Below are positions 20,364 through 33,304 of a stretch of 64,000 nt of DNA, one piece after another; position 1 is the first letter of the stretch; the number at the start of each line of letters is the position of its first letter. The DNA is from Candidatus Undinarchaeales archaeon (GTDB lineage: Archaea; SpSt-1190; JASMDC01). Position numbers and translations under genes: made by a program. Location: positions 32,099 to 96,098 of the forward strand of contig JASMDC010000010.1 of NCBI GenBank assembly GCA_030753015.1, in the 5' to 3' direction. Below the pieces are notes generated by a model that did not search any database, had not been told where the DNA came from, and worked only from the letters and a program-made list of their open reading frames with translations.

Positions 20364-21410
20364 CTAACCTTTGGTGAGGATACCGCCAGCTACGAGGCGC
20401 TGCTTCGGATCATTGAGCTGTGCTATGAGGAACCTGTCGTCAGCACGATAGGCGAGCTCTCTTGCGGTCGTCAGCGTGACCGTGCACGTGCTGCCAGGAG
20501 GCGCCTTGTCCGTCTCCTTCCCATCGACCACGATACGTGCCACGGTGGCAGGCGAGGACTGGAGACCGACGAACAGGTGGACCGTATCGCGTAGAGCGAG
20601 CCTGGATGTGAAGGGTGAGAGCCGTGTTTCAATCTCGAACTTGTTACCGATGCTCTCCTGCGCCGAGATGAGATACCCCCGGTCGAAGTCCTTGGCCCGG
20701 CCGCCCTTGAGGCATAGGCCCACACGCGTCCCGGCAGGGGCCTTGTCCACATCCTCGTCATTGCATTGGATGGAGCGTATCTCGACACCGAACTCCGGGG
20801 GGTAGACCGTCATCGCGTCACGCTTGGCGACCACACCACGGTCCACGTGACCGAGGATGACGCACCCGACGCCTTTTACCGTGAAGAAGTGGTCCACAAT
20901 GACCCGTGCGGGGCCATCGATGAGCTTGGCACGGTCCTCCTTGGCCACGACAGTCAGCTCGGCAAGGCGCTCGTGGAGCAGGTCCATCCCGGAGAAGGTT
21001 GTGGATGAGACCGGGACGATTCCCCAATCCTCCATGGACGTCCCCTTAACGACCGTGGAGACATTGTCGGCCAGCTCCGTCAGGGCCACGGGGAAGGACT
21101 CGTCCGCACGGGTGAGGACGATCAGACCGCGCTGCTTCTCGAGCAGGTCCATCGCTACGATGCACTCGCCGGTCCGGGCCGTGAGGCCGGAGGATGGGAC
21201 GCATACGATGACGATATCGGCCATGTTCACCGCCTGGACCAGACTCTTGATCGATTCCGGGTACTTCTTCACGTCAACGAAGGTGAACACACTATCGCCC
21301 TTTACGAGGTTGTAGAAGGTGATGTCCGAGTCGGTCCCCTTCTTTCCGAGCCTCCCAGCGAGTGTTGATACGCCCACGCCTTCGTCGCCCACAATGGCCA
21401 CTGTCGTCAT
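20364..21410 (-). CDS. Archaeal SelB-like (SelBL) EF-Tu-fold protein
   Basis: LGKKGTDSDITFYN, DHFFTVKGVGCVILG, EIRSIQ, GTRVGLCLKG motifs; degenerate P-loop. Confidence 0.8.
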   Translation of the reverse strand: MTTVAIVGDEGVGVSTLAGRLGKKGTDSDITFYNLVKGDSVFTFVDVKKYPESIKSLVQAVNMADIVIVCVPSSGLTARTGECIVAMDLLEKQRGLIVLTRADESFPVALTELADNVSTVVKGTSMEDWGIVPVSSTTFSGMDLLHERLAELTVVAKEDRAKLIDGPARVIVDHFFTVKGVGCVILGHVDRGVVAKRDAMTVYPPEFGVEIRSIQCNDEDVDKAPAGTRVGLCLKGGRAKDFDRGYLISAQESIGNKFEIETRLSPFTSRLALRDTVHLFVGLQSSPATVARIVVDGKETDKAPPGSTCTVTLTTARELAYRADDRFLIAQLNDPKQRLVAGGILTKG

Positions 21411-21476
21411 CGATACGAGCACACGCCCAAAGAGGTAAAAACCTATTGCCAGCGACAGTCCGCGACGCACGGACAA

Positions 21477-27456: not shown

Positions 27457-29247
27457 ATGGAGATCATCGATGAGCTCGAAGAGCTCGTGTTCCTCGAGAA
27501 CCCACGTATCCTGGTGACCGAGTGGATCCCGTGCGGGAGGAACCAGATCCTATCGCTCACGGACGGGCTCGAAGCTGTGAAGGAGGTCAATGATTCCCTC
27601 TACACGACGACGATGGACGTCCCCAACAGGCTCCACACACTGGTGACGGGGCCTGTCCTCACCAAGCTCCAGATGCAGGACCACGATCCTGCGAGCTACA
27701 TACGCTTCCATGCCAAGGTGTTCTACCCCGAGACCGTGCACCAGGTGGAGGAGTTCGGAGTGCACGTGGACTGGACCGGGCGCATCATCTACGGTCTGAT
27801 CCTGGAGCAGGTCGAGAAGCGCAAGAAGCGACAATCACTGGACCACATGTCTCGGGTCGTGGCCGACATCGTGCTCGACACGTCAACGATGATCGAGACC
27901 ATGCTCTCGGTGTTCCAGCGGGACGTCCTTGATACGGTGTTCTTCGAGAACCCCAACGAACGGAACAAGTTCGTGACAATCATCGCGGAGCGGATGACGC
28001 CCAAACGCAAGTCCCCCGCGGACTACCTGACCGAACGGCGCCTCAAGGGCGAGATCAACCAGGTCATCGAGAACGTGCACAAGGCAGAATCCCTGAGCGA
28101 TGGCGAAGCCGTCTTCCTGGGGACCAAGGGCATAATCCTGGTGTCCCCGGAACCGACGAGGTACGAGGAGGTGCTCTCGCTGTTCAACGGCCTCCAGGCC
28201 CTCGACATATTCCAGCGTAACATCCACGCACGGGTGGGTGCGCTCTGGGACGAGATGCGCGAGACGCGTCGTCTCACGGAGGATGTCTCCGAGCTCGACA
28301 TCCAGCGTGTGTCGGAGGCACAGCACTCGCTCTCCCAGATGACCGACCAGCTCCTGGCCATCGGGGAATGTCTGCGGTACATGGAGGACGCGTTGGAGGC
28401 GCTCAGTAGCGAGTGGAGGGAGCTGCGGGAGCGACGGGCCGCAGAGATAGTCCACCCGGGCGTCTCGCGTCTGCTTAGCCTGCTCGACATCGGCAATACG
28501 CTCGATCTCACCGGACACCGGACACGTGGTATCGGCCGCACCCTCGTGGGTCTCCAGAAGGAGGTGAGCGGCGTGAAGGAGCTGGCCTCAACCATCGGCG
28601 AGCGTCAGATGCGCCACCTTAACGAGAACCTCCAGGAGAACATCGTCCAGATGGAGACTATGAGCCGCTCGTCCCAGCGCACCAGCGTGGCCATCAACAT
28701 GCTCCAGCTCATCCTCGCGGGCTCACTGGCCTTCGACATACTCAAGACGCTCTCGGGCGATTACGAGAACACGGTGTTCAGCTCCGTCGCCAGTGAGAAC
28801 CCGGTGGCATGGCTCGGGCTCACGGTGCTGGTGTGGGTCGGTCTGGCATCCATCTTCTTCAACATCATCCGACCCATCGAGAAACGACGGGAGAAAGGGC
28901 TGCATGCTCGCGTGAAGCTCAACGCACCATATGACAATGATGCGCTCAAGTCGTTCCTCAGCACCCGGGAGATGCTCGTTCAGGAGTCGACATGGGACCT
29001 CCATCACCACGTGTTCAGACGATCGTGGAGCGAGCGGGGCGAGGGTTGGCGGAACAACGAGGTGACCATCCAGATCGATTACGACGAGCTCACAGGGCTC
29101 TTCCGGGACCTCGTCGTGAGCATACCCGCGCCCCAGTACATCGATGAGAACGACGCGATCCAGATAGCACTGCTGGACCTGGTCACTGCCGATGTGCTGG
29201 AGCACAGGACGCTGGACGCCTTCCGGGAATTATCGGGTCACGAATGA
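27457..29247 (+). CDS. Uncharacterised membrane protein with CorA-like topology (large soluble domain, long helices, 2 TM, C-terminal domain)
   Basis: GGTGA RBS; 596 aa; coiled-coil stalk followed by two hydrophobic helices; no GMN motif. Confidence 0.7.
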   Translation: MEIIDELEELVFLENPRILVTEWIPCGRNQILSLTDGLEAVKEVNDSLYTTTMDVPNRLHTLVTGPVLTKLQMQDHDPASYIRFHAKVFYPETVHQVEEFGVHVDWTGRIIYGLILEQVEKRKKRQSLDHMSRVVADIVLDTSTMIETMLSVFQRDVLDTVFFENPNERNKFVTIIAERMTPKRKSPADYLTERRLKGEINQVIENVHKAESLSDGEAVFLGTKGIILVSPEPTRYEEVLSLFNGLQALDIFQRNIHARVGALWDEMRETRRLTEDVSELDIQRVSEAQHSLSQMTDQLLAIGECLRYMEDALEALSSEWRELRERRAAEIVHPGVSRLLSLLDIGNTLDLTGHRTRGIGRTLVGLQKEVSGVKELASTIGERQMRHLNENLQENIVQMETMSRSSQRTSVAINMLQLILAGSLAFDILKTLSGDYENTVFSSVASENPVAWLGLTVLVWVGLASIFFNIIRPIEKRREKGLHARVKLNAPYDNDALKSFLSTREMLVQESTWDLHHHVFRRSWSERGEGWRNNEVTIQIDYDELTGLFRDLVVSIPAPQYIDENDAIQIALLDLVTADVLEHRTLDAFRELSGHE

Positions 29248-29520
29248 TCGTGAGCTCGACCGGCGGTCCTTTTCTCCGGACGCAGCGTGCTTGCCGCTTC
29301 CTCTGCGGTCATCTCGTGGCGCCAGACGGCGGCGAGCAGTTCTTGGACGCTAATGTCCGCGGTCTTCGACTGATGCGCCCCTTCGCGCTTTCGGGGCGTT
29401 CGCTCCTGTGACCTTCTCTTCTCCGGGTCCTTGCTGAGGTAAACGGCCGACCACCGTGAGCCCTTTCGATGAAGCCTTCCCTGTTCTATCAGCGTGGTGA
29501 GGGTGGTGCTGGCGCGGAGG
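29238..29520 (-). pseudogene. Remnant of an orfA-like gene
   Basis: LTTLIEQGRLHRKGSRWSAVYLSKDPEKRRSQ aligns by eye with OrfA LSSCVGKGRLYREGARKSAVYYSMNSRKRRVQ; no intact N-terminus. Confidence 0.65.
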
Positions 29521-29602
29521 CAGGAGAGGATGGGTCCCCTGGTTATGCGCTCGGGTCTTATTATGATATAGTAAGCAGTTAAAATAATAATACGCCATAG
29601 CG

Positions 29603-31531
29603 TCAAGAATCGGTTGGGGCCAGAGCCATCTGGCCTGCCAATAGCGGTCGATTGAGATGTGAAATAATTATGTGTGATTCAACATCCTTGAGCACCCTTC
29701 TACAGACTTCCTTGAACGTCTCGAACTCACCCTCCCCCCTAGCCCTCGTGACGTCGTATCTGCACCGTGCATCCTTGAACTCTGCTGTCAGCCTGTCCAC
29801 TTCGTCCTTCGGGATGGTACCGAGCTCCTCGGGCATGCGATCGATCGAGCCGAACATAGTCTTCACGTACTCGTCGGAGTGGAGGTTCTGGACGAGGCAC
29901 AGGAGCACCCCGTATCTGTTCAACTCGTAACCGGTGTCCTTCCTTCCCGTCCGCTTCCTGATGCCGGTCTTGACCCGTCCGAACCTGGTATCGAGAAGGC
30001 TTACAGCCCGCGGCACGGCAATGTTCTTCGTCTTCCCGTCCACGTTCACGGTGATGTTCGGCACCACGAGACCTTTCCAGTGCTTCTTGATGTGATAAAG
30101 AACGACCTCTTCCTCGGGAGTGATGGTACGCTCCTTCCTGACTTTCTCGAGCCTGTCCCTGAGCGCCGCCAGCTCACGTTCCATCACCGTCGCCTCCTCG
30201 TCCGACACGAGGAGCTGGTCCCGGGGTATGTCGCCCTTGTCCTCGCTCATCCTGAGGACCCCTCTCAGCTCAGAGAAGAGCTCGTAGGCGTCCGCAAGCC
30301 GTCGTCCTAGTGTGTCAGCCGACCTGCTCTCCCTGCTGTTGAATGGGCGCTCGACGATCCTGCGCACCGTCTCGATGTCCCCCGTGTCGAGTCCTGCCCG
30401 CTCCGCCGTCCGTGCGATCATCGATGCGGCCCCCTGCGCCTGCCGGCATCTTCGGTAGAGGTCCGCCCAGGGAATGCTGTAGGGGAACCGGAGCCCGTGC
30501 GCGTCCTCACGGTAGTTGAGGATCCACGACACGAGGTGATAGGTCTCTGCCAGGACGACCGTCCCGTCGTCCTCCACAGGCGCACCCCCCTTGAGGGCGC
30601 ACATGGTGGCCCTCAGGTCGACGTCCCGCTCCGCGGCCTCGGCGCCGATCTCCTTGCGCCGCCTGTCGAGGTCGGGTCTGATCCTGAGGTCGATCATGGC
30701 CTTTCTGAGCTTCATGTAGGTGTCCTCCATCACATCCTCGCCGACATCACGGAGGAAGTGATAGTTGCACTCCCGGGTCGGAAGATCCGGGAACACGCGT
30801 TCGCCCGCCTTGCGCAGTCCGAGCCCCATGTCCCTGACGAAGGCGAGCGGCGTGCCCGCCCGCTCCTTGATGTCCTCGAAGTACGGACCGATGTGCTTAC
30901 TGCTCTCCGACGGTATCGGGCCGCAGGAGAGCGCCCAGCCCGTGAGGAGGTCCATCAGCAGTAGGATGCGGTCACTGCCACCGTCGCCCGTCCCGTCCGC
31001 GCCAAGCACGTAGCCACCGTTCTTGTCCATGGCCTCCACCAGCCGGCCGAAGTGCCGGCGGTGGTACAGCTCGAACCTGGCGAGGAACTCGAGTGCGTGG
31101 TTGCTGACGGTGCCCGCCGACAACGGCACCCCATGCCGCCACCGCATCTCACCACAGGTGTCCTCCCGCGACCGATTCTCCAAATATCGCATCATACCGA
31201 CGGCGCACACCACGTCCATCGTGAACCGCGCCTTGCCGCGCGTCAGGCGACGGAGTTCGCAGGAGGTGTACTCCAGCACATGCCCGCGCTCCAGCTTGTA
31301 CTTCGGGTCGTAAAGATGGACGATCCGGGCGACGAAGCTCCCGTACCGGACCGTGTGCATCGTGCGCGTCGTGGTCTTGAGCACGCAAAGCTCCCAGAAG
31401 CGGTCGTCATCGACGAGCTCGGGCTCAGGGTAGAAGTCGATGACGGGAGGCTCGTCGCCCAGCAGCTGCGCCCGGTCGATCAGCTCGGATTCGGCAGCAC
31501 GGACCTCGGCTAGGACCCGGAGCGAAAGCCC
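29603..31531 (-). CDS. DDE transposase catalytic ORF (orfB), probably expressed by -1 frameshift from orfA
   Basis: VLGADGT, FVRDMG and CNYHFLRD (CxxH) motifs. The frame is open back to the A8G run at 31531-31539; the stop lies inside the TIR. Confidence 0.85.
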   Translation of the reverse strand, partial: GLSLRVLAEVRAAESELIDRAQLLGDEPPVIDFYPEPELVDDDRFWELCVLKTTTRTMHTVRYGSFVARIVHLYDPKYKLERGHVLEYTSCELRRLTRGKARFTMDVVCAVGMMRYLENRSREDTCGEMRWRHGVPLSAGTVSNHALEFLARFELYHRRHFGRLVEAMDKNGGYVLGADGTGDGGSDRILLLMDLLTGWALSCGPIPSESSKHIGPYFEDIKERAGTPLAFVRDMGLGLRKAGERVFPDLPTRECNYHFLRDVGEDVMEDTYMKLRKAMIDLRIRPDLDRRRKEIGAEAAERDVDLRATMCALKGGAPVEDDGTVVLAETYHLVSWILNYREDAHGLRFPYSIPWADLYRRCRQAQGAASMIARTAERAGLDTGDIETVRRIVERPFNSRESRSADTLGRRLADAYELFSELRGVLRMSEDKGDIPRDQLLVSDEEATVMERELAALRDRLEKVRKERTITPEEEVVLYHIKKHWKGLVVPNITVNVDGKTKNIAVPRAVSLLDTRFGRVKTGIRKRTGRKDTGYELNRYGVLLCLVQNLHSDEYVKTMFGSIDRMPEELGTIPKDEVDRLTAEFKDARCRYDVTRARGEGEFETFKEVCRRVLKDVESHIIISHLNRPLLAGQMALAPTDS

Positions 31532-32178
31532 TTTTTTTTGATATCGTACTCATGGATGATCCAGCGAACTCCACGCTCGTTCACATTCATTCCCTTGGAA
31601 CGCACGAGGGGCATGAGCTCCTCCACCGAGGTCGCCCGGTGCTTGATAGCGAGCGCAAGCACATCGATGATCTTCCCCTTCGTCAGGCCCGGCGGACGGC
31701 CAACCCGCGTCCTGAGTTCGGAGCCGCGTCTCTTCATCTGCACACGCCGTTTCCGGCTATTCATGCTGTAGTAGACGGCCGACTTACGGGCGCCCTCGCG
31801 ATAGAGCCGCCCTTTTCCCACACACGAGGACAGGTGGTGATGGATGTTGTCGTGGAGGCGCTGTTTGAGCTCCTTCGCTGTGACTCCTGCGTCGCTGTTC
31901 TCGATGAAGTGGACGATGGTCTCGGAGAGGTTGCCCCAGCGGGAAAAGCGAACTCCCTGGTACTCCCAGAGGTCATGCTCGTCCCATTCAGGGATGTCCG
32001 GCAGCGTGAGCACGCTGCCGTTCCGGTTGAAGCTCGTCAGATAACCTGTGCCCTCGAGCTTCCTCCAGATCGTGCCTTTCGAGCAGTCGAAATGCTCAGC
32101 CAGCTGTGACGCCAGGAGCACCTTGTGATCCCGTAAAAAGGCGATGACATCGTCAGCGGAGATCCGCTCTTTAATCAT
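31510..32178 (-). CDS. IS orfA, multi-HTH DNA-binding protein
   Basis: N-terminal HTH (ASQLAEHFDCSKGTIWRKL), basic composition, ends IKKKG at the slippery site. Confidence 0.8.
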   Translation of the reverse strand: MIKERISADDVIAFLRDHKVLLASQLAEHFDCSKGTIWRKLEGTGYLTSFNRNGSVLTLPDIPEWDEHDLWEYQGVRFSRWGNLSETIVHFIENSDAGVTAKELKQRLHDNIHHHLSSCVGKGRLYREGARKSAVYYSMNSRKRRVQMKRRGSELRTRVGRPPGLTKGKIIDVLALAIKHRATSVEELMPLVRSKGMNVNERGVRWIIHEYDIKKKGFRSGS

Positions 32179-32184
32179 ACTTTT

Positions 32185-32229
32185 AAGTAAGCATATATCC
32201 TTAAATATATTTTCTTTTTATGCTTACTT
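32185..32229. promoter_or_regulatory. Putative orfA operator: 11-bp inverted repeat around an AT-rich promoter
   Basis: AAGTAAGCATA (32185-32195) and TATGCTTACTT (32219-32229), starting 6 nt upstream of the orfA ATG. Confidence 0.6.
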
Positions 32230-32387
32230 TTATGTATCTAGTGCGGCATTTGCCAACAACGTATCAATCTCAGAATTAGTCCGATTACTTCACTACCGTC
32301 AACCGATTCTTGACGCTATGGATAATACGTTTCCAAACTGATTACTATATCATTATAAATCAATCAACACCCTGGACGCCCGAAATG

Positions 32388-32415
32388 ACGCCGTATAATA
32401 TGCATTATTGCGGCG
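32388..32415. other. dif-like 11-6-11 dyad
   Basis: ACGCCGTATAA-TATGCA-TTATTGCGGCG has the ATAA-N6-TTAT core of Xer-type sites. Confidence 0.4.
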
Positions 32416-32556
32416 TGGGCCGATCGGGGTAATTCGGACTCACAAATGGAGGTCATCTGGGGCTATAGGGGCGATAACTTATGTGTGCCTCTTACATTTA
32501 TTTGGAGGAAAAAGCGACGTCGCATAACCCCCTGTTATCAGAAGGCGGCTCGTCGT

Positions 32557-32808
32557 TTATTTATAGACCTTCTCTCGATGTCTGATCTTGAGTATGAGTA
32601 CTCCGTCATTGGTCTTCGTGTAGATCACACGATACTTGCCGACGACAAACTTGAACAAGCCTTTGAATTGGCCATGAAGGGGCTTGCCGCTGTTGGGGTC
32701 TTCGCTCAACGCTTTCTCAAGTGAATCAAGGACTCTCTTGGCAGCTTTCTTATCGATGTGTTTCAGGTCCTTGAAGACCGATGCCTTATACTCGATCTTA
32801 GAGGCCAA
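32557..32808 (-). CDS. RelE/ParE-family toxin
   Basis: 83 aa, basic; GKPLHGQFKGLFKFVVGKYRVIY...IRHREKVYK. Confidence 0.9.
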   Translation of the reverse strand: MASKIEYKASVFKDLKHIDKKAAKRVLDSLEKALSEDPNSGKPLHGQFKGLFKFVVGKYRVIYTKTNDGVLILKIRHREKVYK

Positions 32809-33016
32809 GCCTTTCCCTCATCTCATCACTTGAAATGATCTCATCATCCTTGTCGCGAAGCCTATCGAGAGCGATAAGATAATCGACATATTCCTGGAGA
32901 TAGGATTCGATAGCCTTGCGTATGATAAAGGTCTTCGAGCGCTCGAGGGAGGAGGCCATGCTATCTAATTCCTCGACGATTTCATCAGGAAGTCGTATTG
33001 AAACCGTTGTGGTCAT
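32798..33016 (-). CDS. Ribbon-helix-helix antitoxin (RelB/CopG-like)
   Basis: TVSIRLPDEIVEELDSMASSLERSKTFIIRKAIESYL with acidic C-terminus; overlaps the toxin start. Confidence 0.9.
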   Translation of the reverse strand: MTTTVSIRLPDEIVEELDSMASSLERSKTFIIRKAIESYLQEYVDYLIALDRLRDKDDEIISSDEMRERLGL

Positions 33017-33027
33017 GACACTCACTA

Positions 33028-33048
33028 TGTATTACAATGCATTACAAG
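33028..33048. promoter_or_regulatory. Putative TA operator
   Basis: TGTATTACA near-palindrome with a tandem ATTACAA repeat directly upstream of the antitoxin. Confidence 0.5.
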
Positions 33049-33304
33049 TATATCAATGTATCGCAATTAATCCTCATCACGCCAGTATACCGCTTTCTGA
33101 TAACTAATGCATATGCGAACCCCGGGTGCGCATAATCTCCTGCTGGGGGAGGGTATATGACATATGGCGCATATCCCTCACTCTATCTGCATTCTTCTTT
33201 CGGTAGTTATGTTCGCAGATGGATCTTTGATATCGCCCCTAAAGCCTCAGGATGGGCGAAATGGAGGTCATGGAATGAATCGGGTCACGAATGATCGTGA
33301 GGAC

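Follow-up and report, generated by a model that had tools for sequence, protein, structure and literature searches.

Insertion sequences (IS) of the IS256 family are elements of 1.2-1.5 kb that carry a single open reading frame (ORF) of ~400 amino acids (aa) and duplicate 8-9 bp of their target. In IS3 and IS1 elements, DNA binding resides in OrfA and catalysis in OrfB. According to the accessible part of PMC5009743, the OrfAB fusion of the IS3 and IS1 families is produced by programmed -1 ribosomal frameshifting, and the succession of a regulator ORF, a slippery run and a catalytic ORF is known from IS1, IS3, IS5 and IS630. In Archaea, recoding is thinly documented, and a 2021 review counts, in the part accessible to us, a single proven -1 frameshift, that of fucA1 (PMC8211752). 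Here, we analysed a stretch of 64,000 nucleotides (the window) from contig JASMDC010000010.1 of a Candidatus Undinarchaeales archaeon, which carries on its minus strand a two-gene IS of 2727 bp whose orfA and orfB meet at a run of eight adenines (A8). The best overall explanation of this locus, which we regard as probable, is an intact IS with recent activity, of an uncurated IS256/MULE-like clade, the transposase of which is a recoded OrfA-OrfB fusion.

The anatomy of the element (Table 1) is that of an intact two-ORF IS, as the first-pass annotation of the window had proposed, with perfect terminal inverted repeats (TIR) around orfA and an open orfB frame and with a target-site duplication (TSD), for which a match by chance to a given 8-mer amounts to ~1.5e-5. 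The TIR at the orfB end also codes for the final residues of OrfB (PTDS and the stop), the C-terminal TDS being kept in 8 of 15 aligned proteins, and a TIR core, ATAGCGTCAAGAATC(C/G)GTTGG, is common to the ends found in 7 of the 12 related loci examined. The interior of the element has a G+C content of ~0.55-0.69, as do the genes on either side; towards orfA, both its end and the neighbouring flank are A+T-rich.

At the junction, orfA reads ...GAT ATC AAA AAA AAG GGC..., with an A_AAA_AAG heptamer in the orfA frame at 31537-31531, and it stops at a TAG six codons past the AAG. The orfB frame is open from 31540 to a TGA at 29603-29605, and the -1 frame from the run reads GLSLRVLAEV... into orfB. 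The first ATG, GTG or TTG of this frame is the GTG at 31384, from which the 593-aa DDE ORF named in the first-pass annotation starts; upstream of it, this copy has 52 codons of the orfB frame, among them those of the conserved PVIDFYP motif. Both the A8G near the end of orfA and the open -1 frame could be read directly, and a fusion at the run comes to 216 + 642 = 858 aa, against the roughly 860 aa estimated before. The length of the run is not an assembly error. One 782-nt piece (31026-31807) is spanned, gap-free and without any indel listed, by contigs from three runs that belong to three studies, a check that rests on assembled contigs and not on raw reads, and A8 is agreed upon by three independent assemblies and by metagenome contig L008. 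Two of the three contigs carry strain variants just 5' of the run (ATC>ATT, GAT>GAG) and four more within 45 nt, with the run unchanged.

Conservation of this junction carries the argument for recoding. Among 20 related loci, one from GTDB genomes and 19 from metagenomes, with OrfB 33-58% identical to the window copy (except L007, 74%, and L008, 100%), orfA is followed by an adjacent orfB in the same order in 17. The three loci outside the junction count are L012, which starts just past the junction, L026, a fragment of 96 nt, and L018, which is without orfA. An A-run lies exactly at the junction in all 17 loci in which it is visible: A9 in L007, L013, L019 and L024; A8 in L008, L009, L010, L011, L022 and L014; A7 in L015, L016, L017, L020 and L025; and A6 followed by G5 in L021 and L023. 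Relative to orfA, orfB is offset by -1 in 13 loci and by +1 in four (L011 = L022, L013, L014) and is in frame in none. When identical pairs (L009/L010, L011/L022) are merged, 15 distinct junctions remain, 12 at -1, three at +1 and none in frame, with A9 and A8 four times each, A7 five times and A6 twice. Directly after the run, the orfB-frame peptide [GRK]-[VLIF]-S-[LIV]-x-[VIL]-[LI] begins in all 15, and PVIDFYP is the next conserved block of that frame. Within the 80 nt that follow the run, this copy differs from L007 at ten positions, five of these changes being synonymous when read in the orfB frame.

A word-indexed search of 5.8 billion proteins of 326-1038 aa retrieved 15 close relatives, all of 585-664 aa and none of them an in-frame fusion. 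A profile built from these 15 and run against 1.84 billion representatives matched 2144 proteins at E<=1e-3, 495 of them at E<=1e-30. Nineteen of the 164 proteins that were examined are at least 740 aa long, and 13 of these 19 begin with an OrfA homologue (phmmer E 1e-13 to 5e-26) that continues in frame into the OrfB-like part, giving natural fusions of about 800-870 aa. The junction motif ...[YF]x[IL]xKKK[G]... is visibly kept in six of the 13 (P0029, P0068, P0070, P0081, P0094, P0127), and these six carry CxxC...CxxC where this copy has a cysteine-free beta hairpin. Fusions of this kind indicate that both modules belong to one protein, and together with the conserved split they form a pattern that is not explicable by a broken gene or an assembly error. 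Single in-frame homologues are confined to distant relatives, where they support the fusion rather than refute it; the close clade, to judge from its sequences, keeps the two modules apart by the slippery run.

In the explanation we favour, the transposase would be an OrfA-OrfB fusion of ~858 aa, made only by a -1 frame move on the A8 run. Standard decoding would yield OrfA alone, a tandem winged-helix/helix-turn-helix protein, and the slip would set a low, fixed ratio of transposase to OrfA. Integration would make the 8-bp duplication and, in this genome, would be aimed at the dyad of an operator-like palindrome. From the junction sequences we infer that the fusion OrfAB is made, and we are strongly inclined to believe that recoding happens at the run.

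Given recoding, the slip may take place at the ribosome or at the RNA polymerase, both of which yield ...DIKKKGLSL.... We give RNA polymerase stuttering, with one extra A in part of the mRNAs, about an even chance; ribosomal -1 frameshifting at A_AAA_AAG is the weaker candidate, and a combination of both mechanisms seems unlikely. The first-pass annotation had described a -1 programmed frameshift. The A-run stands as a conserved recoding site that joins orfA to the DDE ORF, and an IS3-type ribosomal -1 shift is not established. A purely ribosomal event as in IS3 and IS1, in which tRNA-Lys would move back by one base, departs from our favoured explanation solely in the level of the slip and is the rival that survives best, possible if rather doubtful. 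An X_XXY_YYZ heptamer is present in this copy and in 10 of the 12 distinct -1 relatives, with orfA stopping shortly past the site in this copy, and -1 frameshifting on A-AAA-AAT has been shown in an archaeon for Saccharolobus solfataricus fucA1, according to the accessible part of PMC8211752. In the draft genome, ARAGORN found tRNA-Lys(UUU) only and no tRNA-Lys(CUU), in a set of 35-36 tRNAs that is incomplete. Against a purely ribosomal slip, L021 and L023 (A6G5) lack the heptamer, and three distinct, otherwise intact relatives (types L011, L013 and L014) need +1, so that a ribosomal -1 slip would give a dead-end product there. Moreover, no conserved stimulatory structure was found 5-9 nt downstream: across 15 loci, the minimum free energy z-scores of the 60 nt after the run lie between -2.4 and +1.3, L019 being the one locus below -2 and this copy scoring +1.3, and no Rfam frameshift element was found. 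Structure-independent frameshift sites exist, so weak downstream structure is compatible with frameshifting. The +1-configured relatives and the apparent lack of downstream structure together tilt the balance slightly to RNA polymerase slippage. A homopolymer that is conserved at an ORF overlap and varies in length among homologues fits transcriptional slippage at least as well as ribosomal slipping. As far as the accessible part of PMC5009743 goes, no +1 ribosomal frameshifting is known in IS elements and the +1 cases use transcriptional realignment. The accessible parts of two further sources report that IS1447 slips both ways on A9 and that seven A's are enough (PMC6211511), and assign IS elements with 8-10 A, one set from Sulfolobus, to transcriptional slippage (PMC1088944).

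Several observations weigh against the explanation we favour or against a slip of the polymerase. The A_AAA_AAG of this copy is a textbook ribosomal site, the A6-A7 runs of 7 of the 15 distinct relatives are short for polymerase slippage, and the three +1 relatives may be fresh one-A deletion mutants and not working elements. A tRNA-Lys(UUU) that is alone, if true, would favour ribosomal slipping, though the incomplete census settles nothing. An in-frame ATG lies ~20 codons after the run in several relatives (P0003, P0005, P0006), from which OrfB could be translated by itself. Of the seven related loci with recognisable ends, only one (L010, TTTTTATT) displayed an 8-bp TSD; metagenome contigs of multicopy elements may be chimeric. 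The sole RNA-library match, one 235-nt contig inside orfB (30944-31178, run X20), does not show transcription, and a named relative could exist in ISfinder.

Much less probable is that there is no recoding and that OrfA and OrfB are separate proteins, OrfB starting from the GTG at 31384 or from an ATG eight codons on and the A-run just encoding Lys-Lys-Lys. The gene callers do give separate proteins for all 15 close relatives, and some of these have the ATG after the run. However, this copy is without a start codon before the 52 conserved orfB-frame codons, orfB-frame conservation begins at the run in every distinct junction, the distant relatives fuse the same two modules in frame, and the Lys codons stay an unbroken A-run, not mixed AAG/AAA, across elements that are 33-58% identical in protein. 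That the element is dead or artefactual, a single-ORF gene broken by a one-base homopolymer indel or an assembly miscall, is very improbable and largely refuted. In its favour, homopolymers are indel-prone and the distant relatives are single ORFs; against it, the same split recurs in 15 distinct elements from many samples with none in frame, contigs of three studies reproduce A8 gap-free, the two ORFs, the two TIRs and the TSD are all undamaged, and the end of a second copy is 100% identical.

Table 1. Features of the element and its surroundings (window positions unless a contig of the draft genome is named; OrfB residues in the 645-codon numbering)
Feature	Position	Strand	Remarks
Whole insertion sequence, 2727 bp	29595..32321	minus	delimited by TIRs and TSD
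Terminal inverted repeat, orfB end	29595-29616		22 bp, perfect, CCATAGCGTCAAGAATCGGTTG
Terminal inverted repeat, orfA end	32300-32321		22 bp, perfect, CCATAGCGTCAAGAATCGGTTG
Target-site duplication, copy 1	29587-29594	+	8 bp, ATAATACG
Target-site duplication, copy 2	32322-32329	+	8 bp, ATAATACG
orfA, 222 aa	32178..31510	minus	two winged-helix domains and a C-terminal three-helix helix-turn-helix
Probable A8G recoding site	31531..31539	minus	A8 at 31539-31532, G at 31531
orfB frame, 645 codons	29603..31540	minus	-1 relative to orfA; begins GLSLRVLAEVRAAESELIDR...
Catalytic Asp 1, D182	30995-30997	minus	motif DGTGDG; invariant 15/15
Catalytic Asp 2, D237	30830-30832	minus	invariant 15/15
C258-x-x-H261 after D237	30767-30769 and 30758-30760	minus	invariant 15/15
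Third acidic residue (candidate), D517	29990-29992	minus	motif PRA.SL.D.RFG..K..IRKRTG
Internal palindrome	32177-32237		arms of 19 nt, spacer of 23 nt, half-site GCTTACT; immediately before the start of orfA
Target palindrome arm, 18 nt	29563-29580		ATGATATAGTAAGCAGTT; 14 nt from orfB-end tip
Target palindrome arm, 18 nt	32336-32353		AACTGATTACTATATCAT; 14 nt from orfA-end tip
Stand-alone orfA-like gene remnant	29238-29575	minus	ATA replacing ATG start; promoter palindrome split by the IS
Conserved ~210-bp 'leader'	32330-32537		with palindrome at 6 other genome sites
Module sites on other contigs	C11:25508, C29:62927, C29:178904, C62:12835, C73:53298, C73:98971, C95:116444
ParE-family toxin and CopG-type ribbon-helix-helix antitoxin	32557-33025	minus	Pfam E 2.2e-13 (toxin), E 2.6e-8 (antitoxin)

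OrfA is a predicted DNA-binding protein. It matches Pfam HTH_11 (E 3.8e-7), its AlphaFold model (pLDDT 88.7) comprises a pair of winged-helix domains, one long helix and a three-helix bundle at the C terminus, and Foldseek matches the model to tandem winged-helix proteins such as TFIIIC tauB, the SelB C-terminus, ScpB and MarR/SlyA, which at the level of a predicted structure reads as a generic DNA-binding signal. orfA is conserved in 12 related loci, and OrfA alone most likely acts as a regulator next to being the DNA-binding module. The internal palindrome upstream of its start is a putative operator/promoter, and the related element on contig C70 has the same layout of internal palindrome and orfA.

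OrfB consists of a degenerate zinc-ribbon-like beta hairpin and an RNase-H-fold catalytic core with a large all-helical insertion. In the alignment of 15 relatives, the D..D..CxxH pattern seen in the first pass proved invariant. As third acid, 12 of these close relatives have Asp and 3 have Glu, making the clade mostly D-D-D and not D-D-E. The IS256 family has a 'TN..E..N...K.R' box, and the likeness of the D517 motif to it, together with a fold match spanning residues 105-560, points to D517 as the catalytic third acid. The model of OrfB (pLDDT 75.7) has an RNase-H core with ~280 mostly helical residues between the second Asp and the last acid. Its best Foldseek matches are Hermes (6e-5), ISCth4 (8e-5) and the P element (2e-3), and VIA-align gives ISCth4 a Z of 14.7 (264 residues aligned, rmsd 5.7), Hermes 14.2, the P element 11.6 and retroviral integrase cores values near 10. 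A search of the OrfB profile against PDB chains gave nothing meaningful, the best match being a de novo protein at E 0.13.

At the sequence level, the placement of OrfB as an IS256/Mutator-like enzyme is borne out by weak profile hits next to this fold match. OrfB has no Pfam match at E<=1, and NCBIfam IS256 (NF033543) scores 24 bits (E 1.7e-5), below its curated equivalog cut-off of 150 bits; weak IS256 matches over the second Asp and the C-x-x-H box occur in 14 of the 15 close relatives (best E 3.2e-9). ISL3 (E 0.007 in 1/15) and IS1249 (3/15) appear below threshold, and no IS3 or rve match was found in Pfam or NCBIfam at E<=1. None of 24 wider relatives reaches a curated IS cut-off, with IS256 at 37.7 bits or less, IS66 not exceeding 42.9 bits (cut-off 180) and ISH6 not exceeding 20.9 (cut-off 240); in NCBIfam, the curated IS481 cut-off was likewise not reached, and no ISKra4 or ISLre2 match is listed. 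Of the Mutator/MULE models (Pfam PF10551, PF00872), MULE scores 30.1 bits on the fused relative P0068, above its threshold of 27.6, and stays below threshold on P0094. Neighbours in the ESM Atlas are clusters with Transposase_mut, MULE, IS66 or ISL3 domains, one of them named 'ISNCY family transposase', and Transposase_mut or MULE occurs in 10-20% of the members of the neighbour clusters. OrfB appears to be a deep, uncurated branch of the IS256/MULE group, outside the curated IS256 family; it presumably acts in the manner of that group, whose 8-bp duplication the element shares. No curated IS family model passes, and the label 'unassigned, IS256/MULE-like' holds as far as the Pfam and NCBIfam libraries go. 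The ~2100 profile relatives, annotated as hypothetical or plain 'transposase', are without a Pfam or NCBIfam family, and a search limited to one open-access collection returned no description of an IS256-like element with orfA/orfB and a slippery site.

Beyond the TIRs, the inverted repeat continues into the flanks and places the element at the dyad of a palindrome that recurs in the genome, a feature absent from the first-pass annotation. The distance of both arms from the tips implies a pre-insertion spacer of 6 + 8 (the duplicated octamer) + 6 nt, cut on the dyad. A census of the whole draft genome, allowing up to 4 mismatches, gave 22 matches. Seven palindromes are uninterrupted, with spacers of 9-10 nt (four sites) or 21-23 nt (three sites), and three are occupied, by this copy, by a second copy at the start of contig C44 (tip-to-arm distance 13 nt, opposite orientation) and by the C70 relative at a contig end (14 nt). 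The remaining matches are lone arms with 3-4 mismatches, and one lone arm, on contig C20, is not beside any IS. With ten sites of ~56 bp in 3.85 Mb, the chance of a hit is of the order of 1e-4 per insertion, so three insertions out of three are far beyond chance. In runs X4 and X5, a contig has the orfB end followed by this octamer, spacer and arm, beyond which another flank begins, a hint of a fourth insertion junction.

These palindromes lie directly upstream of stand-alone orfA-like genes. The genome has eight orfA-like matches; leaving aside the orfA of the IS itself and the fragment on C70, they are 28-49% identical, and the stand-alone genes are without the KKK tail. The palindrome before the element's own orfA shares with them the half-site GCTTACT and its distance from the start codon. 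The positions of the three junctions suggest that the insertions are aimed at an operator-like palindrome upstream of stand-alone orfA-like genes; the palindromes would then be operators of OrfA-type proteins, and the OrfA module of OrfAB would guide insertion to them. Around seven metagenomic relatives no flanking palindromes were found, making the targeting a property of this lineage at most. The joint proposal that this is a site-specific 'homing' IS, its OrfA module, as part of OrfAB, recognising the GCTTACT arms of palindromes that guard the promoters of the orfA-like regulator genes and of its own orfA, and an 8-bp staggered cut being made at the dyad 13-14 nt from the arm, and that the family is the first conserved case of archaeal RNA polymerase slippage in the recoding of an IS256/MULE-like transposase, is tentative and on balance unlikely to hold in full.

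Some further observations concern the same palindrome. At ~10 genome sites it is part of a module of the ~210-bp leader, the 18-nt/18-nt palindrome (spacer 9-10 or 20-23 nt) and the start of a small orfA-like gene, and contigs of other samples diverge at 32534/32538. As a structured RNA, the leader has no Rfam match, and its RNAalifold consensus was weak, neither strand showing covariation support. The leader-palindrome module may serve as a promoter/operator cassette or may be the terminus of a different mobile unit.

The element is intact and probably recently active. The copy end on C44 is identical over 76 bp, and the element was found neither in the same-genus genome G001 (99% complete), nor in 15 other genomes of the phylum, nor in 60 relatives searched; the identity of the second copy end and the absence from G001 and the 15 phylum genomes argue for activity. 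The related element on C70 is 83% identical. In GTDB representative genomes, the single close locus lies on a 1.7-kb contig of a metagenome-assembled genome, and a tblastn search of 72,556 plasmids gave two weak partial matches (23-28% identity), the Nostoc one annotated just as 'transposase'. At least half of the sampled words of the element are present in 19 public runs (20 holder rows from 12 studies), and a near-identical element occurs in runs labelled marine, seawater or hydrothermal vent. No contig in four runs joins across the element, and in G001 the conserved flanks enclose another island, of 3.3 kb, which leaves no orthologous empty site; only paralogous uninterrupted palindromes, e.g. 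on contig C62, serve as an empty-site comparison.

The draft genome of the host, a marine archaeon, comprises 117 contigs and 3.85 Mb. No small-subunit rRNA was found in it; its assignment to Archaea rests on an RNase P RNA of archaeal type, scoring 146 bits with a model whose cut-off was passed by just the four archaea of the control set, and on a Hef-like helicase encoded in the window. Several other loci were noted. Contig C78 (11503-12047, L003/L034) carries at its end an 81-bp piece of the orfB 3' end, 98% identical, which abuts a truncated, diverged orfA-like gene on the opposite strand and is either a rearranged remnant or an assembly join. A lone TIR-like 20-mer on contig C40 (4940-4959) has 3 mismatches to the IS end and neither an orfA nor an orfB match in its vicinity, and may have been left behind by a related element. 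L018 (37-1730) has kept the A8 run and orfB and has a second, diverged orfB-like frame upstream on the opposite strand, and is either a nested or a recombined element. The left flank of L023 (190-250) resembles, by eye, the 3' end of a tRNA gene (a GGTTCGAATC-like stretch, then GCGCC), and L023 may be inserted next to a tRNA.

In the window, the ParE-family toxin and CopG-type antitoxin genes overlap by 11 nt and lie right beside the leader. The stretch 29250-33089 is replaced by other genes in the same-genus genome, which marks it as a variable island. Further away, a SelB-like elongation factor is encoded at 20364-21476 on the minus strand (TIGR00475, E 9e-33, below its cut-off), and ARAGORN reported a tRNA-Sec (anticodon TCA) in its first run only, the one with intron detection lacking it; selenocysteine is possibly used by this archaeon. 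The genome-size gap within the phylum is striking, the host and one congener having 3.6-3.8 Mb and the 15 other phylum genomes 0.6-1.2 Mb at 72-94% completeness.

Three aspects are new: an IS256/MULE-like catalytic chassis with a hAT-like insertion domain and no curated family, an archaeal host with a natural series of run lengths and both frame offsets, and an apparent aiming at the operator of the element's own regulator family. The 15 distinct natural variants of one site (A6-A9, both offsets) form a ready series for the question of ribosome versus RNA polymerase in archaea. The orfA/orfB slippery-run design of IS1, IS3, IS5 and IS630 appears to have arisen also on an IS256/MULE-like core, with in-frame fusion as the alternative state in relatives. 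If the palindrome targeting is true, this would be an IS aimed at the operator of its own regulator's paralogues.

Compared with known systems, IS256, represented by ISCth4 (PDB 6xgx/6xg8), is the best structural match, with an RNase-H DDE fold that OrfB shares, weak profile matches over the second Asp and the C-x-x-H box, and an 8-bp TSD. Unlike IS256 members, this element is about twice as long, has two ORFs and a recoding site rather than one ORF, places ~280 mostly helical residues between the second Asp and the third acid, has Asp as the third acid in most of the clade and carries a tandem winged-helix N-terminal module. With IS3 and IS1 elements (IS911, IS150, IS1) it shares the layout of OrfA, OrfB and OrfAB and the same A_AAA_AAG heptamer; in contrast, its catalytic domain is unrelated, its TSD is 8 bp and not 3-5 bp, no downstream stem-loop or pseudoknot was found and some relatives are at +1, and there is nothing of IS3 in this element beyond gene layout. 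The hAT (Hermes) and P elements resemble it in an RNase-H core interrupted by a large all-helical insertion domain. Both make an 8-bp TSD, but they are eukaryotic, the identity is 9-11% and no sequence-level match was found. A conserved A-run at the orfA/orfB overlap is also described, in the accessible parts of PMC6211511, PMC1088944 and PMC5009743, for IS that slip on A-runs (IS1447 with A9, a Roseiflexus IS630, and 8A-10A IS of Deinococcus, Nostoc and Sulfolobus). As in these, run length varies among homologues and both frame configurations occur, whereas the transposase superfamily here is another and runs go down to A6-A7 in 7 of 15 junctions. IS that seek repeated extragenic palindromes (REP/BIME; IS1397, ISKpn1, ISPpu9) have a fixed insertion place within the palindrome, according to the accessible parts of PMC1525189 and PMC12288879; here, in contrast, the palindrome is AT-rich, measures ~56 bp, lies on the promoter of stand-alone orfA homologues in an archaeal host and resembles the one before the element's own orfA. 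Finally, S. solfataricus fucA1 is an archaeal gene split at A-AAA-AAT and expressed by -1 frameshifting, as given in the accessible part of PMC8211752, but it is a cellular glycosidase at a single locus, whereas in the present family the slippery run is a conserved feature of a mobile element.

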